Part shown: in pieces, positions 924-43,127 of the stretch
How positions within the stretch are numbered: the stretch's first letter is position 1
Layout: every line of letters starts with the position of its first letter
Position numbers and translations under genes: made by a program
Source of the DNA: Lingula anatina
Taxonomy: Eukaryota > Animalia > Brachiopoda
Assembly: GCA_051362555.1 (NCBI GenBank)
Contig: CM120645.1
Coordinates: 16,864,001 to 16,928,000, forward strand
Length of the DNA stretch: 64,000 nucleotides
Direction: 5' to 3'
The notes under the pieces: generated by a model
Database searches by the model: none
The model's input: the letters and a program-made list of their open reading frames with translations, nothing else
What the model was told of the DNA's origin: nothing

Positions 924-3900
924 TTAAACTGGATTCACTATTCTGTCGTAAGTGATGATATATTCAGGATAGCACATTGTTGTCTCGTAAATAATAAACT
1001 CTCTGTACAACATATTGGAAACGTCTGCTATCACGGAGTCAAAATGACTGGTGTGGGTACATACGACTTGCATGCAGCCTTTAACAGTACAAGGAGGCCG
1101 TGGAAATTGTTTCTTTTCACGTGTGAGATATGGTCGACCCATGCAGGCACGAACAAGGAACATTTTTAACTCTTTCATCCCACGGTTCGTTTTTTCTGAA
1201 AAAGACAGAGATGGTGTCGCAAATAGTGAGGCCTTTACATATTTATTCACAACACAACTCTCTATTTAGCATTCCCTCTCCATATAATTTATGTAACATT
1301 TTTCTTCAGTGCCAGCATCAATGTCAATCATTTGTGAAAACGTATATACATCAAGATAAATTTCCCATCAGCAAGATCGTTAGTAAATAAAGGCAAGTCC
1401 TTTTCAAATGATTCAGTCATTGCATACATAAGTCATATACATGATGCTACTTTAGTATCTGAAGAAGGCGTTCTTTTTAACGATATGATATCGCCTATTT
1501 TGTCTTTATATTTTAATCTTTTAAAGATGTAGAAAATGACGGTCTTACTTCGTTCTGCTTCTTCTATCATGTCTAGCTCTGCCTTCGAGAAATTTTCTGC
1601 AAGGTAAATACCCCGTCCTTCGTTTGTGATCCTAAAATCAAATCCAGTGGCACATATTGTTTCAGCAACATTTGTGTTTGTCCCGTGAAAAAAATAGTAT
1701 TCATTCAGCTCATTTCTTAGGCCCTCATTTAAGATTCTGGAAAGCTTGTACGTATAGGCGTTCATCCATGGCGCTTTCTCAAAAGGATGCTGTGAACATT
1801 TCCTGGATATGTCTTGTAATTTGCAAAAATATTGGCTCCATAGTCGGGGATTTTCGACCCGCTCCACCTTCGTTATCTTAAAATCAGTGTTGTCTCTTGC
1901 ATGGATAAGCATTTTTACTTTAGACCACGACTTTGTCATCATACGATTGATCTCGTCCTGTATTTCACCGCTGCTAACATCGACTATCACGACCTTACCT
2001 TCTTGGCCTAAAAGATGAAACAGAAATTTTGTTTTATTCAAATCGGGACTACGTGATTCAATTTTTTTCGTTTCTAAAGAAGGTAAATTTCATTTATTTC
2101 AATTAATTCAAACCCAGTGAAATATTAACGGCAAAGCAATTTTGTTGATATAAAAAAGGACATGGGATATCAAAGCTTTATCAGTGCGAAACTGAGATTT
2201 ACATAATGAGGGAATGTCTAGAACTGGAAAGAATACAGTAGCTTTTGATGGTATTGCGGTCGTTTCTTTACCTGCCCATGTCTTAAAATCATTCTGAAAA
2301 TTAACCCAATAACTTGGTGCCAGTATTTCCATCTCCACCACTTCATTTGCTTCGTCTTGCTGTTTCTTTCTTTGAGCCAACATCTTTTGTCGTTTTCTGG
2401 CCATACGGAAGATTCTATAGACATCATAGATTAGACCTATAAGGCACGAGAACAGCAAGGGTAACATGGCATACACCTTGATATACAACGAACTGACGTC
2501 ACCCGGGTTGTCAAGGAAGTAAACCAGTATCACTGACGACCAACCAAAACACCAGGCATCTGAGAATTCGGGAATAACTTTCAACAGCCTTCCTGGAATA
2601 TAGAATCCATGGATGAATGGAACATGCAATGTTAAAGTCCAATCTTTTTACATTCATTTAAAGTTCATTACACACTCCAGGAAATGCTCTATATAGAAAG
2701 AAAAAAAACAGGTTTTAATCTAAATTTCAAACAATAACGGTTGTCCATGATTGTAGAAACAATTCATTTCACATTTCAAAGTTATCCAAGTACATCGTGT
2801 AGTATTTCGACAACTTACCATTGCTGGCGACATACAGAAACAGCAACGTCACATAAAGAAAAAAGGCACCAAAAACAAAAGCGAAGCCAACAGCCCATGG
2901 AAGGTCCATGTTTATACCCTGCACTATGATTGTATAGATGGCAGCACTTATCTGGTGGACAATACTGTTGTCGTATGTGGAACTTGATATCATCAAAACC
3001 GCTCCAACAAGCCACAATAAACTAAAGATGACGTATAGCAAACAGCAAATCAACAAAAACTTTCTGTCTTTACACGGTTCTGACTCACTGCACTTGCAAC
3101 ATGCACAGCAACATGTGAAAATCATGACCGGTGCAACAATCAGAATAAGGATTGTATGCAGTGTGAATAGAATAGTAAAACCAAACTCTGAATAGCCCCA
3201 ACTGTCCCATATTCCGTCCAGCCAGAGTGTGCCAAGAATCTTTGCCGCTGATCCAGCGGGAAATCCAGCAAGTAGTGTATACGAAAGATGCACGCGTTTA
3301 ACATCTTGAAACACAGCATCTTTGTCCTTGCTTTCCATCTTTTTCATATACAACACACATACGTGAATTGCTTGTGATACGTCATACAGGAGTAGCGGAA
3401 TTAATGCATATCTTGCAGGAATCGCCAGCAATAGCCCGGTACATAATGCACAAACGCCTGCCCATTTGAAAACATCCACCAATAGAGGTCGCTCTATCTC
3501 CACGAGTATCTTTACAGACCACACGCACAAGTCTTCATCTTCTTCTATTTCCACTGATGTTTTGATGGCCATGGTTTTCTCCCGTGTCAAACCAGCATAT
3601 ACTTTACTGTGTAATAAAAAAATTGTCATTTACATCCATTTTCAAATATTCACAATAAAAATTAGAGTATGGCATTTGTTATAGTGCCGAATGTAATTCA
3701 CAATGTTCTATACGTAACAATATTTAAAAAAAAGAAAAAAAAACTAAATAGATTAAAGAAAAAAATGTGACTAGGATATATTTTGAATTGATTATCATAA
3801 AGGAAAAAACAATGTCAGACTTCTTTAATTTTAGAGAAAGTAGTTACGACAACTTACTTTTTTCCTTTTCTGTAGATGCAAGTTTGGAGGCAGACACAGG

Positions 3901-9139: not shown

Positions 9140-11056
9140 TCACAGTGAGATCTGAAATGTCTTAATAAATCCACTCTCCTCTGCAACAACTAACTGTTCT
9201 TGTGTGTCAAAGGCGACAGCTTGTGGATTCTTCAGTCCATCCTCCCGGGTGACGACATTCTTCAAGAAACGGCCATATTTGCTTATCATTACCACTCTGT
9301 GATTCCAGTAATCTGCAATGAATATACGCCCCGAGCTATCTGAACACACTCCCTTGGGCTGCCACAGCTCCCCGTCACCGCACCCGGGGCTCCCATAGTG
9401 GGCTATTACCTCTCCGCTAAGGGTCATCACGAACACACAGTCACCCCCATAGTCGGAGACGATGATGGAGCCGTTGGACAAGTTCACTGCGATACAACAT
9501 GGTATATTACACATGTCCAATGCAATGGAGGACAGATGTTTTCCACTGGTGGGTTCAAGTATAACCAAGCGTTTCTTAACCGAGTCACATATTACCAGCT
9601 GGTTTTGAGAGATCATGGTGACGCCGAAGGGTTCCTTCATTAACCCTTTACCTAAGGTCATTGACTGTCGACCTTGAGCGTCGAACACCCTAACCAGCTG
9701 ATCGTCGAAGATGCTGACACATATGTCTCCGTTTGGGAGCACCTCGACTCCTCCCGGCTCGTTTGCCGCCAAAACGGTCTGTATTTGTCCTGAATGCGTC
9801 AGGATCTTTACTCTGTTGTTGGACATATCCGCAAGGTAGATGTACGAATCATCCACAATCATGTCAGATACTGAGCACCTGTCTTTGTCATCCACGAGTT
9901 TTGCATTGAACGTTTGCTTCAGAAGAGGTCGCTCCTCCAGGCTTGATTGAGAGGTGCTACCAGTGCTTGAAGATCTGCTGAGCGGCACAGTGTAACCTGC
10001 TGCGATTTCTTCTGGGGTTATTACCCGTGAAAACAGTCGCCGTTCTCGCCCGGACTGCCGAGCTTCTCCAGAGTCTGTACTTAGTGATACTTGAATGTTC
10101 CCCAGCATGTCATCAAGAGATCTGTCAATCGGTTTATATGTTATCACGCGAGAGAAATCTAACATTGAAATGTTGAGTGGAATGTCGGTTTGAAGAGACT
10201 CGCTAAGATTGGATAGCCTCTCTAGCAGAGCCTTACTTTGGGACATAACAACAGCGTCCGTCCCGCTCTGAATCAGTTGCTCAGCAAACTCGCAAGCACT
10301 GTGAATGGTGACTTGTCTCATTTCAAGTTCGTCTTTGAAAGCTTCCAGTTGTTTGGTTTCGTCATCTTCAACCGAAGCCACTTCCGCGTTAAGTCTCCGA
10401 CTATGGTCCTCAGCAGCTTCGACTATTTTTCTCAAATCTTGTTTTATATCTGATACCACAGCCTCTCGCTGACGTTTTCTCTGCTCCGCAATCCGGGTTG
10501 CATTTTCCTCTTCTTGTTTTAAACGTTGCAGCTCTTGCAACGGTTTTTCAATCGCTGATTTTAGACGCTCCTTTTCATTCTCCGCGACGTCTTCCACTCG
10601 CACGCACTTGTGACCCTGATGATAGTCTATAATGCAGTCTCCGCAGACAGTTGTCTCATCCAAGGAGCAATAGTACAGTAGTTCGCGTCCAGAGTGGTTT
10701 TGACACTGTATAGTCAACTTAGATATGGCTTGCTTGACTTCGTCAATGGTCGCCTGTTCTTCGTCTTTATTTTTCTGTTGTTCTTCTAAGATTTCTATGG
10801 CTTTGATAAAGGCAAAGTTTTTCTTCAAAGTCCGTAGGCCACCCGACGGTACGGCGTTGGGTTCTCTGCACAGTGGACAGAGAAACTGAAAACCATCTTG
10901 TTCATTTTTATGCTGAGTTCTATTCCCGTGGTCTGTTATACACTTCAGACAGAAGGTATGATTGCACGTCAGCACTCGAGGGTCCTCATATTCTTCTAAA
11001 CAGATGCTGCAAGTTAGTAGATTATCGACAAAAGCAGTAGCTAGCGCTTTCGCCAT
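9140..11056 (-). CDS. Intronless TRIM-NHL E3 ligase (RING, B-box, coiled coil, NHL repeats; TRIM2/3/71-like, no filamin domain)
   Basis: 643-aa ORF 9140-11071; start probably MAKALA at 11056 by alignment with the paralog. RING CSIC..CNHTFCLKC..CPLC; B-box CQNH..YYC..VCGDC..HQGH; NHL repeats such as GDGELWQPKGVCSDSSGRIFIADYWNHRV. Confidence 0.92.
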   Translation of the reverse strand: MAKALATAFVDNLLTCSICLEEYEDPRVLTCNHTFCLKCITDHGNRTQHKNEQDGFQFLCPLCREPNAVPSGGLRTLKKNFAFIKAIEILEEQQKNKDEEQATIDEVKQAISKLTIQCQNHSGRELLYYCSLDETTVCGDCIIDYHQGHKCVRVEDVAENEKERLKSAIEKPLQELQRLKQEEENATRIAEQRKRQREAVVSDIKQDLRKIVEAAEDHSRRLNAEVASVEDDETKQLEAFKDELEMRQVTIHSACEFAEQLIQSGTDAVVMSQSKALLERLSNLSESLQTDIPLNISMLDFSRVITYKPIDRSLDDMLGNIQVSLSTDSGEARQSGRERRLFSRVITPEEIAAGYTVPLSRSSSTGSTSQSSLEERPLLKQTFNAKLVDDKDRCSVSDMIVDDSYIYLADMSNNRVKILTHSGQIQTVLAANEPGGVEVLPNGDICVSIFDDQLVRVFDAQGRQSMTLGKGLMKEPFGVTMISQNQLVICDSVKKRLVILEPTSGKHLSSIALDMCNIPCCIAVNLSNGSIIVSDYGGDCVFVMTLSGEVIAHYGSPGCGDGELWQPKGVCSDSSGRIFIADYWNHRVVMISKYGRFLKNVVTREDGLKNPQAVAFDTQEQLVVAEESGFIKTFQISL

Positions 11057-11346
11057 CTTTAATATTTTCATAAATAGGCAGCTCTATTGTGTTCCTGCCC
11101 AAAATAAGCTAGCTGTAGCTTAAGTAAACACCATGCGTGTGTGCTCGCTTTTGCATTTTTGTTCTTTCACTAAGGGGGTCGGTAACTTGTTTCAAAAAGC
11201 CTTCCTTAGCTGATGACTTGGGTCTTATGGGTTGGTTCACGAAAGTTCTCTTTCAAGTGTGTGACATTTTCAGTTTTTACACCTTAGAAAAGTGAGACAG
11301 GTCAACTTGACATTAGCTGGTGCCAGTTGCTCGCTTCTGCATTTAA

Positions 11347-12681: not shown

Positions 12682-13425
12682 ATGGCGGACATCGAGCCGA
12701 CCGATAGCCAACAGGGGTTTGCGACTCCCCTTTCTAGCTATCCAGTGGCTTATGAAGACCAGTTATTGATGCAGAGTAATGCCAATATTCTAACCTTAGA
12801 CGATTCAAGAGATCCAGGACCAGAACTGCCCGACAGCGCTCTTGGAGGCCAAGACGATTTTGATCCCGACCGCGATTCTGATGACAGCGGCAACAGCACA
12901 GATGACGAGGATGTGCAGGTATCTTGAAAATCATTTTTTATTTCTTCATCCGTCGTTTCATTCAAGGGAAATATATAGAAAGCACATTATCTTAAGTCAC
13001 GTAGTCATTTGCCAGTCCAAAGTACATACAGATCATGAGATGTGTATACTACAGTACCAAAACCTCTATGTACAGTACAGTGAACATACTAACAGTTGGA
13101 TTAACGATATCAGTTACCTAGTTATATACTTTGCTTTTATATCCACCAGATTTCTTGCAAATGACCGTTTCATGTGTTTACTTGCGACCGAATTATTTTT
13201 TTCTAGTATTTTGTGCTGTGTTTACAATGCTGTATTGCACATTTAAGTATGACCGTGAACGTTGATGCCAGTGTTTTTACGAAAGTCTTTTGGTTTCAGC
13301 TGTCACCAGGTGGCATTTTAGATGAGGAGACCATTGCCAGAGGTCTCTCCAATCTGGGAAGATCAGCAGATGGCACACAGCAGGTGTATTTGCATCTTAC
13401 AATACCAGTGAGTATATCACCAGTG

Positions 13426-16500: not shown

Positions 16501-17967
16501 ATGTGTATATCAATCACTAATATCATTGCAGCACCCTGCCCAGTATAGAGACCCCCTACCCAATGCTAGTATTAGTGGGACCCAAGGGATCTGGCAGGAG
16601 AGACCTGGGTCTCAAACTGGTGGATGAATTTCCAGATTACTTTGGATATGGGTATGTAAGAATCATTATAATTGTAAAAATTGGAGGGTTTTTGCACTTG
16701 TGCCCGTGGTAAGAAGCAAACATGCCAAAGTTTACATGTATTCACTGGTGTCCAACTTACTTGTTTGTGGGTGCATTTAGTTGTCAGGGTGTTAGTTAAT
16801 CTGCCACCTCATAGACATCATAAACAAAGACATTGAGATTTTTAATATTGTCCAAGTTTTGTTCATTTTGGCACATAAATGTTAAACATTGCAGGGTGTC
16901 CCACACTACCAGAAGAATGCGCCATGATGAAGAAGATGGAAAAGATTACCATTTTGTGTCCATTGATCAGTTTGAATCAGAAATCAAACATGTAAGTGAC
17001 TTTAGTGGATGGAATACATTAAAGCAACATGGCTGGTTCTCAATCCTGCACACAAATCTTGAATACATGTTAGATTTAGTTTAGTCAATTAGGGAATGAC
17101 CAGGACTGAAATTGTGCTATGCATCCTTTATTTATATTTTCCTCAAGTCCCAAAACATGAAATGTGCACATAAATATACTTACATTTGGCAACCCTTGAG
17201 CTAACAGGATCTAAACTGGAATCATTGAAAGAGTTGATTTCTTTGCAGCTTTACAAGTATAATCTATGTACATATTCTAATTAATCGCAAATTTTTATCT
17301 TGTTTCCAACAAGCTACTCATTCAGAATTCACCATGTTTTATTCCTTACAAAACACATCGACTTTTACCCAACCCACTATTTAGAATTTAGGAGTATTAA
17401 CAAAACATTTTAGCAAGTTCAGTTTTAACAAAATATTTTTATTTTCATTCCATTATGAAATTTTATTTTTACAATATAGATTTAATGTGCAACCAAATGT
17501 TCTTCCAGGGCAAGTTTATCCAGACATACCTGCACCAGGGGGAGTACTATGGCCTGACAATGGAGGCTATAGAGAGTGTGGCCAGGGAGGGACTGGCTTG
17601 TGTGGTACACATGGAGCTGGAGGTAAGCAGTGGCAGATTTAAAGGTTGTCAGGGGGGTCCTGACCCCCACCCCACCCTTCAGTTTCTGAAAAAAAAAAAT
17701 CACACCAATGGTCCCCTCTTGAAATTAGAATTTTGACTAGCTGAATCATAGTTCTAAACTGTACCAAATGGCACCATTTGCCCTCTAAAATACCTAAAAC
17801 CCACTCCAAGAAGGGGGAGGGACTGGGAGGATGCACAAGTTTTTATTAAATTAAGTTTTTTTAAGAGTTATTCTTTCTATGTCTACATTATAAAATGTAG
17901 GACAATTGGTGTAAATCTTAACTGTAAATCTTTGACATTTTTTCATTTAAAACAAATCATAAGATGT

Positions 17968-18031
<64 letters not shown>

Positions 18032-18387
18032 TTAGACTATTAAACATCAGTATCACAATTGAATAAAGTTGAGTTGAGATGAGTTGAGTTGAGTATCATA
18101 ATTGTCCTTTCCCATACCTTAGGGAGTGCTGACCTTGAAGAACACCTACTTGGAGCCCAGGTATGTGCTGGTGCTGCCACTGAAAAGGGAAGTACATGAG
18201 CGTCGTATGCGCGACATGGAGCTGTTCACTGAGAACCAAATTGAAGCCACGCTAGCCAGGACACAGGTGTACATAGACTATAATCAGGAACACCCGGGCT
18301 TCTTTGACATGGTCATTCCTAGTGGTGAGTTTGCATTTCTTAAACATGACTTTTCTTCTTTAGAAGGTTATTTGAATTTCCACTCAC

Positions 18388-18421
<34 letters not shown>

Positions 18422-19994
18422 GCTGAGAGCATTTGGCCAATATCCTTGGCCTTGGTAACAACAGACTTTTGTTGGTCCTCATGCCTGCCAGAAGCTGAGC
18501 ACTGGTGTTTATCCCCATGGCTCTATGGGCAGTAAATCCTTACCCTTTGGTGGCCATATTAACCAGTGGGTTAAAACAACTTTGGCCCAGACTGTTACCA
18601 TAATAATTTACATGTTTTGAGTTTTGCAGTGATCTTCATGTTATTAAGAGTAAATGTCATGGTGGATTGCTCTCAAATATTTTCAGCTGTTTTATAGGGA
18701 TATTTACACATTTTTTCTTGCTCATACCTTTCCACAGATGACATCTCGGAGGCCTACAAAAAACTGCGTCGCTTGGTCATGGACTACCTTGGCATCAACG
18801 TCCCCACGCCCACGGAGTCCGAGTACCCAGACCAGGACACCAGTAGTGTCACAGGGACTAAGCTGACAGACACAGGGATGGGGGCCAGGACCTGGTCACG
18901 CCCCAGTATTCCTGACAGTACATCACAGCTACAGGCCAGCACTGGGGGAGGAGTCGGGAGCAAGGCACACACACCAGTTGGAAGGGGGGTTGTGGTGAGT
19001 GTGCTTTAAAAGATTTTACAGATAGAATGTTACGTTTTAGTACCAATAAATGTTTGAAAAAATTTTTACAAGCTGTATTGATGTCATTATCATTGTGGTT
19101 TATAGGAAGCAGCCTCATTGAGTCGTAGGAAGAGTGCAGCCAAAGAAGCAGTAGCAGGCCTAAAACCAAGCATTTATGATGAGATCTTGAAATAGTAAGT
19201 GATGTTTGTCCCAAAAAATAAGTTCATTGGATTCTTTTATCGTTTTCCATATATATCTGTGTTAAGAGAAAAGAATACACGTACATTTACTAATGTATAT
19301 ATCAGTGTAATTTTTTATGTTTATTTCATCTTCAAATATGTAAGTAATCAAAATATTGAATCCAATTTTATGGAGAAGATGATTAGTTAAAATTGCATAT
19401 TACTTTTCAGGTGCATTATAAAATAGTAATATCTGAATATTTACCTTATTTTTCTCCAGCACTCCCACAACGGCTCCTGCAATGGAAACCAATGGCCTGG
19501 GTGAAGGCAATGAGGTCACAGGTCAAAGGTCAAGGTCAGCCCCTGGAAAGGCCTTCACCCCAGATGACCCCAATAATATGGACCAACTCCCTCCTAGCTC
19601 CCCAGACTCAAGCCACCAGACATCCAGGACCAGCACCAGTCTCTCTAATATATCCTCAGCCCAAAATGAGGCTTTTGAGGAAACAGAGTCCCAAGATGGC
19701 TCAGGGCAGAATCAGCCACCAATTGAGTTACCATCAGAATCCATGGATCCCATGGAACTGATGTCTCCAGACAGGGCAACAAAAAGTGGGTCTGGGTTTG
19801 TGTTTGCGCCCCCTCCTGGAGGTTCTGGGGGTTCGAGGCCCCACTCTGCAGGCTCTATGGAGCTGGGTTCTTATGATGTCAACTCACTCCCAGCTGTTAA
19901 CAACTCTGGCAGACCTGGCTCACACAAACATAAAGTGCTGCCACCTATTGGTGGGTCTCCTACACCACAGACAAATACAATGCCTGAATATTAG
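12682..19994 (+). CDS. LRGUK: Leucine-rich repeat and guanylate kinase domain protein; 16 exons (12682-12918, 13300-13407, 13595-13676, 13876-14058, 14419-14543, 14769-14822, 15100-15189, 15598-15765, 16200-16306, 16532-16651, 16895-16991, 17509-17622, 18123-18324, 18738-18994, 19106-19194, 19460-19994)
   Basis: Acidic N-terminus; GLSNLGRSADGTQQVYLHL; SDS22-like LRRs (LLILDASHNKI, LKEVDLSFNCI); LRR cap NPIQELPNYRL; GK domain LVLVGPKGSGRE, VSHTTR..EEDGKDYHFV, YYGLTMEAIESVAREGLACVVHMELEGV, EHPGFFD. Confidence 0.92.
14059..14418 (+). other. U12-type (minor spliceosome) GT-AG intron in LRGUK
   Basis: 5' site GTATCCTT. Branch-point-like TTCTTAAC about 10 nt before the terminal AG, no polypyrimidine tract. 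Removal keeps the frame (LD-N-NQI). Confidence 0.88.
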
Positions 19995-21705: not shown

Positions 21706-40433
<18,728 letters not shown>

Positions 40434-40662
40434 CTTCCTGGTACATAAAACGCGCGTGCACTGACGGTAGGAAGTAAAATAGATATAATCAATTTTTTTT
40501 TAACTAATGTCACTTACAGTTGAATATTCTGAATATTATGATATAATATCTATATATATCATTTAAAAATGATTTGAATTTCAATTTCACTCTACAATTC
40601 TTCAGTATGACATTGTTTTTATATAAGCGCTTACTCACGACTGTGTATCAAGATGGCGACTT
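40434..40662. promoter_or_regulatory. Bidirectional promoter between APEH and MRPL42
   Basis: Divergent ATGs 220 bp apart (40433 and 40653), local CpG enrichment, ETS-like GGAAGT near 40470, YY1-like CAAGATGGCG over the MRPL42 start. Confidence 0.65.
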
Positions 40663-41061
40663 GCACAAAATTGTCACGTTTTCTGGCTTCACCCAACTTA
40701 AGTCCGTTTTGTGGGGTGATTATGTGTAGTGCCAAAAGTAAGGAGTGTATTTAACTTGAGATTTGTCAAAATACTTCAAATCAATCTTACGACTAGTAAA
40801 TCATATTGTCAAATGTATGTACACATCTTGTTATAAATGTTGATACATTCCAATTTTAAGATTATCTATTTTAAATTGCCCAAAATCTACATTATCTTCA
40901 CTTTTCTTCCAGGTAATCAGCATCACACTGCTCGCCAAAAGTCTTCTTCAGCAGAAAATGACAATAATTCAAGGTATGACATGAGAGGCTTTTTATTATT
41001 ATTTCCCTGGTCTGATTATGCGGTTAGACTGAAATGTGCAATACAGGCTGCGCAATACACA

Positions 41062-41136
<75 letters not shown>

Positions 41137-43127
41137 TGCCAGGGGCAGGTAGAACCAGCTGGGTAGCTCAGTAGGTAAGAGCACTCGCCCTGTAAGCGCG
41201 GGTCCCGGGTTCGATTCCTGGTCTGGTTGGTGATTTTTCTGCACTCACCCCAAATCGCTACAATGGTGGCAGCAGTGTTGCGAGATAGGGCTCGCGTCTT
41301 TTGGCATTTGGGGGGGAGGAGTGTAGTGCCAGGGGCAGGTAGAACCGGCCGGGTAGCTCAGTAGGTAAGAGCACTCGCCCTGTAAGCGAGGGGTCCCGGG
41401 TTCGATTCCTGTTCTGGTCCGTGATTTTTCTGCACTCACCCCAAATCGCTACATATATATAAAATAAACACAGAAAAAGGTCATTTCCAACAAAATAGAA
41501 ATATATGAAAGTGAAATATATTACTAGGTAATTAAAATTGCTGAATCAACTTAACAAATCGGCACAACTAGTTTAATTGTCATTGGGTCGGCTGCCACAC
41601 TGGCAACTGGCTATTCTTGGCTGGCATTAATATATGTGAAATAATGCATGAAATATCAGCTGAGAGATAGAGGTGCACATAACTAAAATAATGGCCAGTT
41701 ACATTTGTAGCACATTCAGCGTAATGCAGGGGCTCTCAATTAAACTTCTGTGTACCTCTCACCTCAGCACGCTGCACTCAGCCATTTCTTTTAAGCGCTG
41801 GCACAAATAGTCTGTATAATCAGAAAATGCTATTGTGAGTGCTATTGCATGGAACTTGGTCCTAGTGTTTGATAGGTTATTGTAAATAACCAGATTGGGT
41901 CACTTGCAGTAAATCCCAGCATGTGCTGATTACATGTTTGTGTAATTGACATTCATGGCTCACACGACATGGTTAGATGGCCTTGTTTTATCTCGAAGTG
42001 TTATTTTTTCTTTGCTATAGCAACCCAGCCATAGCTTTATCCAGTGATGGCAGCACATTTTTATGCTGGCACCCACCAAAGAAATTTCCCTATGAAAGTA
42101 CAAAGGTAACTTTTATTTAATTGCTAAGATATTATAATCATCAATTATTGATATATAATTTTACGTTTATGCCAAAATTTATTTAGTATGAAGTGTTTGA
42201 TTCTTTCCTAAGATATGAGATCTGTTCAAAATTGTTATAAAAAGGTTTGAAAATAATTTAAATATTTTTGTTGTTGTCTTTTAATTTAGCCCGTACCAAG
42301 ATTTGAAGAAGCAGTTAGAGAGGTATTTCATTATTTGTTTAGTATTATTTGTTGTTGATTGGTTTTAGCCTGGGAATCAGTGTAGAAGTAAATTCTTTAA
42401 AAGCAAAAAAAATTGTATTGATATCTCGGCTTATCAATGTATTTTCATGATAAAAAAATCATAAACATAATAAATAACAATCCTCAGATTCAGAATAAGA
42501 TGAACTCTTTTTACTCAAAGTTGAAAAGTTCTATTTATTTGTCAGAGAAATACTCTAATTCTACCTAATTCTTAATTCTTCTTTCCAGGGTGACTCTGCC
42601 CTCAAAGTTCAGTATCGTTGGGATTACCACAAGAGACAGCGTCCCTCTGGTCCTACAACACGGGAACTGTCTGAGATGTTTTATACCTACAGATGGGAGT
42701 TCAGACCTAGGTAATGTAGCATTAGATCTTTTCAACCTGAACCAGGGCCTGTCCACATTTCAGTTTTTTTTTTTTTTTTTCCAAATACAATTATCCCCAA
42801 TAAATTCTGTTTATGATGTATAATAAAAATGACTTGGCAAATAAATGAAATAAAATGATTCGATGTGGCAGGAAAAAAATTGCAAGCAAGTATAAAATTG
42901 TTCTTCCTGAATAAATTCAAAAAAAGGAAATGAGTTTTTTAAATTAATTTTAATTAATTTTTTTATTTATTGGGAGATTGGGGTGTATTTTTAGTGTAAA
43001 ATCAGTTATATGCATTTCAAATGTCTGTTATCATGGCAGTGCTAATCATTTTACTTGCATGAATTTCAGGCCAGGGAAATATAAATATAGAAAACCAAAC
43101 CCTCCTCGAGACAGGGATGGTATGTAA
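40653..43127 (+). CDS. MRPL42: Mitochondrial ribosomal protein L42 (mL42); exons 40653-40737, 40913-40973, 42021-42105, 42290-42322, 42589-42710, 43070-43127
   Basis: Spliced product: presequence-like MATCTKLSRFLAS..., then IALSSDGSTFLCWHPPKKFPYESTKPVPR and GPTTRELSEMFYTYRWEFRPRPGKYKYRKPNPPRDRDGM*, matching recalled mL42 motifs. Not visible as a whole in the ORF track because the exons are short. Confidence 0.88.
41132..41453 (+). mobile_element. TRIM (terminal-repeat retrotransposon in miniature) with tRNA-like LTRs (Helenus/TRIMp3-like)
   Basis: LTRs 41132-41262 and 41322-41453 (TGTA...TACA). PBS TGGTGGCAGCAGTG at 41264-41277. PPT GGGGGGGAGGAG at 41310-41321. TATA on both flanks. Each LTR has A box TAGCTCAGTAGG and B box GGTTCGATTCC. 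Confidence 0.88.

Follow-up and report, generated by a model that had tools for sequence, protein, structure and literature searches.

Cassandra and Ajax are non-coding TRIMs that carry a Pol III-type promoter, derived from 5S rRNA, in both LTRs; this has been validated for Cassandra, and Ajax has a 5-bp TSD. The Cassandra transcript extends from the 5S unit in one LTR to its counterpart in the other (PMC10886601), and multi-unit Cassandra transcripts read through the LTRs (PMC7215508). Helenus families carry a tRNA-like unit in the LTR, for which tRNA-derived SINEs (SINE2), with their similar tRNA-like head and A and B boxes, have been proposed as the source (Kojima, 2024; PMC10886601). The same paper states that the Pol III function of Helenus has no experimental validation. 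Its Table S1 lists Helenus-1_LAn from Lingula anatina with an LTR of 132, an interior of 59, a total length of 323 and a TSD of 4, and the consensus sequences are, according to the paper, also deposited in Repbase. In the full-text search, whose scope excludes most subscription journals and Repbase Reports, we found no relevant work on 'TRIMp3' beyond PMC10886601, and nothing newer on the family among the papers listed.

Anatomy and family membership of the element

The stretch of DNA analysed here (the window, 64 kb) contains a mini-retrotransposon of 322 bp at positions 41132–41453, made of an LTR of 131 nt, an interior of 59 nt and an LTR of 132 nt (Table 1). A preliminary description of the locus had proposed these coordinates, with direct repeats of about 131 bp, TG..CA ends and a 59-bp interior, and all of them hold. 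The two LTRs are identical in 124 of 132 alignment columns and find each other by blastn within the window at E 1.5e-53, so the repeat pair is not a product of chance. A PBS to tRNA-Leu with one mismatch and a PPT adjoining the 3' LTR are also present where they had been claimed. The 59-nt interior encodes nothing, and the element, with its two LTRs in less than 1000 bp, is non-coding. No further Helenus copies were found elsewhere in the 64-kb window.

Table 1. Features of the window discussed in the text, with positions counted from its first letter.
Feature	Position	Strand	Remarks
5' LTR	41132–41262	+	131 nt, TG..CA; 126/132 positions equal to published Helenus-1_LAn-LTR (by eye)
Interior	41263–41321		59 nt, between the two LTRs
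3' LTR	41322–41453	+	132 nt, TG..CA; 130/132 positions equal to published Helenus-1_LAn-LTR (by eye)
PBS	41264–41277	+	Pairs 13/14 with tRNA-Leu-AAG 3' end (Fig. S2, PMC10886601); mismatch at 41274
Small interior hairpin	41279–41296	+	Present in MFE fold
PPT	41310–41321	+	12-nt purine run directly before 3' LTR
tRNA-like unit, 5' LTR	41157–41229	+	Rfam RF00005, 44.3 bits; A-box-like 41164–41175, B-box-like 41208–41218
tRNA-like unit, 3' LTR	41347–41420	+	Rfam RF00005, 48.6 bits; A-box-like 41354–41365, B-box-like 41399–41409
T5 run, 5' LTR	41234–41238	+	Just past tRNA-like unit, upstream of PBS; putative role, Pol III terminator-like
T5 run, 3' LTR	41425–41429	+	Putative 3' end of full-length RNA
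Left TATA	41128–41131	.	Candidate 4-nt TSD, end of (TA)n run
Right TATA	41454–41457	.	Candidate TSD
Older dispersed repeat	41021–41531	+	Apparently split by microsatellite and Helenus copy; raised depth 41505–41548
Element-free collinear relative of older repeat	13114–13255	-	Matches both flanks, 41021–41046 and 41462–41531 (+)
Predicted coding exon 1, MRPL42-like gene	40653–40737	+
Predicted coding exon 2, MRPL42-like gene	40913–40973	+
Host intron 2 (from start-codon exon), MRPL42/MRP-S32-like gene	40974–42020	+	Predicted from splice sites and phases
Predicted coding exon 3, MRPL42-like gene	42021–42105	+
Predicted coding exon 4, MRPL42-like gene	42290–42322	+
Predicted coding exon 5, MRPL42-like gene	42589–42710	+
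Predicted coding exon 6, MRPL42-like gene	43070–43127	+
Tandem array	27438–28130		344 nt x 2 (85%)
Tandem array	28654–29635		161 nt x 6.1 (97%)
Tandem array	37150–37722		77 nt x 7.4 (97%)

Comparison with the published Helenus-1_LAn entry, made by eye and not by program alignment, gives 313 identical positions out of 323 (96.9%), with 57 of 59 matching in the interior (by eye). Of five short motifs taken from this copy, four occur in the Helenus-1_LAn-LTR entry, and Helenus-2_LAn-LTR shares one of these four; the PBS motif finds no match in the supplement because of the mismatch in this copy. Hits of more than 90% identity count as family members (PMC10886601), and 313/323, counted by eye, lies above 90% for both identity and length. 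The letters therefore mark the element as, almost certainly, one slightly decayed copy of Helenus-1_LAn. Its assignment to the Helenus/TRIMp3 type of tRNA-bearing TRIM, with a PBS for tRNA-Leu, had been right from the start, but the suggestion of a probably uncatalogued family does not survive comparison with the published catalogue, in which DataS1 and Table S1 (PMC10886601) hold the family with the same part lengths. Since 2024 the family has had a name, published lengths and deposited sequences; the element is an ordinary member and no new family. The match to a Lingula repeat family and the names of low-identity paralogs of a window protein (see below) make Lingula the likely host, so there is no need to invoke horizontal transfer.

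Like the Helenus-1_LAn entry, this copy has the same PBS, PPT, tRNA-like unit and T5 run, whereas the TSD length, 4 in the published entry, is ambiguous at the TA run where this copy lies. The sister families Helenus-3_LAn and Helenus-2_LAn (322 and 314 bp) share the LTR termini, a tRNA-Leu-type PBS and the PPT but have other letters in U3 and in the anticodon arm or acceptor stem, and match clearly less well (by eye). Helenus-4_PiIm, from a bivalve, has a Thr-TGT-like unit with the same anticodon-loop letters as here (Fig. S1, by eye); its anticodon-stem letters differ but still pair, and its PBS corresponds to tRNA-His. Unlike Cassandra and Ajax, the promoter-like unit of this element is tRNA-derived: an Rfam scan to E 1 listed tRNA and no 5S rRNA-derived sequence. 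The element also differs from SINE2 in having no LINE-like tail and in the PBS, PPT and TG..CA ends that belong to the LTR route. A pair of SINE2 elements, in which a single tRNA head precedes a LINE-like or poly(A)/simple-repeat tail and PBS and PPT are lacking, was ruled out because the two TG..CA repeats come with both a PBS and a PPT.

The small interior hairpin that had been described is present in the MFE fold, but the 59-nt interior is no more stable than its shuffles (z -0.01). Its arms equal the anticodon-stem arms of the 3' unit (41374–41390) in swapped order, and the interior of the published Helenus-3_LAn also contains the hairpin (by eye). Speculatively, the interior and the tRNA-like unit could cross-pair in the RNA.

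All ten differences from the published entry, nine substitutions and one 1-nt deletion, are private to this copy. By eye, five of the nine substitutions, including the PBS mismatch, are CpG-to-TpG or CpA transitions, whereas CpG sites make up only about 13% of the entry (by-eye count). This excess points to decay of the copy via methylation, as far as substitution types can suggest it. The published Helenus-1_LAn PBS pairs at 14/14 positions with the 3' terminus of tRNA-Leu-AAG (Fig. S2, PMC10886601). That the Lingula PBS would be primed by tRNA-Leu is our own reading, and the alignment in Fig. S2 omits the Lingula families. The distance between the LTRs is 0.055 (Jukes-Cantor, 7/131 sites), which indicates that the insertion is not very recent. 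This copy has been accumulating mutations since it inserted and is likely inert today.

Insertion site, host gene and other copies

The element lies, as had been proposed, within intron 2 of a predicted MRPL42-like gene, and it does so in sense orientation. The six-exon model is in frame, with AG/GT borders and consistent phases, and its 444 nt correspond to 147 codons plus a stop. Pfam finds an MRP-S32 match on the exon at 42022–42105 (E 8.6e-08), which supports the gene assignment, and no match on exons 1 and 5 searched alone. Upstream, at 39007–39854 (-), we also identified exon-like ORF pieces of a minus-strand gene that would be in head-to-head arrangement with the MRPL42-like one.

Other coding features of the window include two uninterrupted ORFs (9140–11071 and 32953–34815, both on the minus strand) for RING-B-box-NHL (TRIM-NHL) proteins identified by Pfam. 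The first is an annotated protein present in NCBI collections, and the best 2 of its 13 non-self relatives are Lingula anatina paralogs with 36% and 30% identity. ORF pieces at 924–2647 (-) carry motifs resembling what we take to be a PARP catalytic domain, and exon-like ORF pieces at 17401–18458 (+) presumably resemble a guanylate-kinase-like domain.

TATA stands on both sides of the element in a TA microsatellite, as claimed, although duplications of 2, 4, 6 or 8 nt fit the flanks equally well because the insertion site is itself a TA run. TA runs of at least 8 nt make up 0.3% of the window, and 0.8% of its positions are the start of a TATA; for target bias, this is a single site. Both flanks match a collinear, element-free sequence at 13114–13255, so the insertion appears to be nested in an older repeat, itself degraded and dispersed. 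Between the matching blocks this relative has 46 nt, compared with 415 nt here, where a CA/A/TA microsatellite and the Helenus copy intervene. With a likeness of about 74% over just 70 nt, the relative is too weak to fix the TSD. At 41505–41548 the summed contig depth reaches about 7–12x the flank plateau in four DNA runs.

Contigs from four DNA sequencing runs of three studies (four of the ten runs that contained part of the stretch) were compared with positions 41263–41900, with 32 of 350 contig pieces listed. Summed contig depth over the LTR, relative to the flank plateau, was 76–245x, 136–254x, 99–203x and 61–128x in the four runs, values that are not copy numbers. The first 44 nt of the interior reached 12–34x the flank depth in the four runs and are hence multi-copy themselves. 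In all four runs, contigs switched to other flanks exactly at the first base of the LTR; such contigs numbered at least four, two, three and five per run among the loose ends listed (24 of 70). The family is dispersed, with many copies in the host.

Consensus flanks at the loose ends agreed poorly (0.53–0.69) and were left out of the assessment of target bias. At the other end of the element, the contigs of runs X1 and X2 that cross from the LTR into the flank contain just 25 and 22 LTR letters, below the 31-letter rule, and X1 may come from the sample of the window itself. In runs X3 and X4 the depth is zero at 41461–41482, a region skipped as a repeat, so the gap is uninformative; in one X4 contig 29 deviating letters precede 41507, and the adjoining repeat was skipped. 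These junction data were set aside as evidence on presence/absence polymorphism of the insertion. The X3 contigs at 41338–41421 have letters like those of the sister family Helenus-3_LAn (by eye), which also speaks for Lingula as the host.

The tRNA-like units

Both tRNA-like units score above the Rfam RF00005 gathering score of 29 (Table 1), which bears out the earlier claim of a cloverleaf-like sequence with A and B boxes in each LTR; the intact anticodon arm that had been quoted for both, however, is found only in the 3' LTR, the arm of the 5' LTR forming 4/5 pairs. A Thr-TGT-like unit had likewise been claimed for each LTR. ARAGORN agrees for the 3' unit, which it calls Thr(tgt) and which has TGT at the anticodon position (41381–41383), but calls the 5' unit Tyr(gta). 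U33 is near-invariant in tRNAs, and the 3' unit has C rather than U at that loop position, together with one T-stem mismatch and three G-U pairs in the acceptor stem. Neither unit gains stability over shuffled sequences (fold z 0.00 and 0.64). As candidate functional tRNA genes the units were rejected, no intact cloverleaf with matching isotype being found (C33, one broken pair per LTR). The preliminary description had warned of mis-annotation as two tRNA pseudogenes or SINEs; ARAGORN calls two tRNA genes at the one element, and such copies, called by both ARAGORN and Rfam, swell tRNA gene counts.

The acceptor and anticodon stems differ among Helenus-1_LAn, Helenus-2_LAn and Helenus-4_PiIm yet mostly still pair (by eye). 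Such changes with pairing kept could result from selection that preserves the fold, or from independent captures together with conversion, an alternative that has been discussed for Cassandra (PMC10853983). The tRNA-like stretch of the LTR likely serves as a Pol III promoter.

Proposed transcription and mobilization, and the T5 run before the PBS

We consider it very probable that the element is a Helenus-1_LAn copy that likely spread through RNA made by Pol III, which the machinery of an autonomous Gypsy element then reverse-transcribed and integrated. The Pol III-plus-Gypsy route, taken alone, is probable. TFIIIC would occupy both boxes (A and B) in the 5' LTR, and Pol III would initiate a short way upstream of the tRNA-like unit, some 25 nt inside the LTR. 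Most transcripts would end at the first T5 run, as RNAs of about 80–90 nt that lack the PBS; some would pass this run and terminate at the one in the 3' LTR, as an RNA of about 275 nt. In this longer RNA the whole tRNA-like unit would form R at both ends, with U3, R and U5 of about 25, 82 and 24 nt. A helper particle, needed in trans because the 59-nt interior encodes nothing, would package it. Host tRNA-Leu would then prime at the PBS, strand transfer would proceed via R, the PPT would prime the second strand, and the helper integrase would insert the product at TATA with a 4-nt duplication.

These steps follow the account of LTR biology in PMC10886601, in which a tRNA primes at the PBS, strands are transferred via R, the PPT acts as a primer and the integrase generates the TSDs. 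That paper argues for a Gypsy helper of the animal Helenus families from PBS likeness and 4-bp TSDs, and its Fig. S2 shows two Gypsy elements with a PBS for tRNA-Leu-AAG. Gypsy-group elements of Drosophila also make 4-bp TSDs, and the gypsy clade has a TATA core in its targets (PMC3276498).

Some readings of the locus compete over what the element is. It is scarcely credible that the family is uncatalogued: ten of 323 positions do differ from the published entry, but the lengths agree part by part, half of the differences look like CpG-type decay and the >90% rule places the copy in the family. A tandem of two SINEs derived from tRNA, or a duplication at the site, would explain the tRNA-like heads with A and B boxes and would suit the simple-repeat surroundings. 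We give that reading almost no credence, given the TG..CA ends, the PBS directly after one repeat, the PPT directly before the other and the lack of a tail; moreover, contigs of four runs change to other flanks precisely where the LTR begins, and the interior is itself multi-copy (12–34x). Nor are both units at all likely to be working tRNA-Thr(UGU) genes, or a source of functional tRNA. Both exceed the Rfam gathering score and are called by ARAGORN, and seven bivalve Helenus families could encode tRNA-Thr, one of them with an identical anticodon loop (PMC10886601). The same source, however, judges a functional Helenus tRNA unlikely, though it leaves it possible. The units here depart further from a tRNA gene: C33 in place of the near-invariant U, three acceptor-stem G-U pairs, a T-stem pair broken in the 3' LTR and an anticodon-arm pair in the 5' LTR, conflicting ARAGORN isotypes, folds no better than shuffles, and a position inside the LTRs of a dispersed repeat. 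We regard this reading as very improbable.

Another possibility keeps the family and changes its transcription. The RNA template might come from host Pol II read-through, for example of introns, or from tandem arrays, and the tRNA-like unit might mostly give short terminated RNAs or act as no more than a chromatin element. The T5 run between promoter and PBS in both LTRs favors such a route, as do the sense orientation of this copy within its intron and the Cassandra multi-unit transcripts that read through LTRs (PMC7215508). Against it stand the A and B boxes conserved across Helenus families and the Helenus lengths, which stay in the Pol III range (311–1263 bp; PMC10886601). A U3 of about 25 nt also leaves scant room for a Pol II promoter, and Pol III read-through is common (bioRxiv 10.1101/2025.10.17.683076). 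On balance we find this alternative route unlikely.

The preferred reading, Pol III transcription with a Gypsy helper, has to account for the T5 run. It sits between the promoter of the tRNA-like unit and the PBS, a few bases past the unit, as in tRNA genes, so a full-length RNA would require Pol III to read through it. Together with an extra T4 at 41299–41302 of this copy, its position argues against efficient full-length transcription by Pol III, if the T-runs act as terminators. In human Pol III transcription, four T already give efficient termination, and read-through of terminators is nevertheless common in human cells (bioRxiv 10.1101/2025.10.17.683076). A run of T4–T6 follows the tRNA-like unit in all six printed Helenus LTR entries (by eye). 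The main text of PMC10886601 has 'terminat' twice, both times on Cassandra, and neither 'read-through' nor 'cloverleaf'.

These observations allow a joint reading that we put forward tentatively and hold to be possible but rather doubtful. Helenus LTRs may be whole miniature tRNA-gene units that comprise a promoter, a terminator and a cloverleaf whose pairing has been preserved between families through paired changes. Short RNAs resembling pre-tRNAs might then come off every Helenus LTR, solo LTRs included, and the RNA that transposes might arise only when Pol III terminates leakily at the first T-run. The question posed by the locus, how a Pol III-driven LTR element makes a full-length RNA despite a T5 run before the PBS, concerns the Helenus-1_LAn family and not this single copy. 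If the joint reading is true, the leakiness of the terminator would be a throttle on Helenus transposition.
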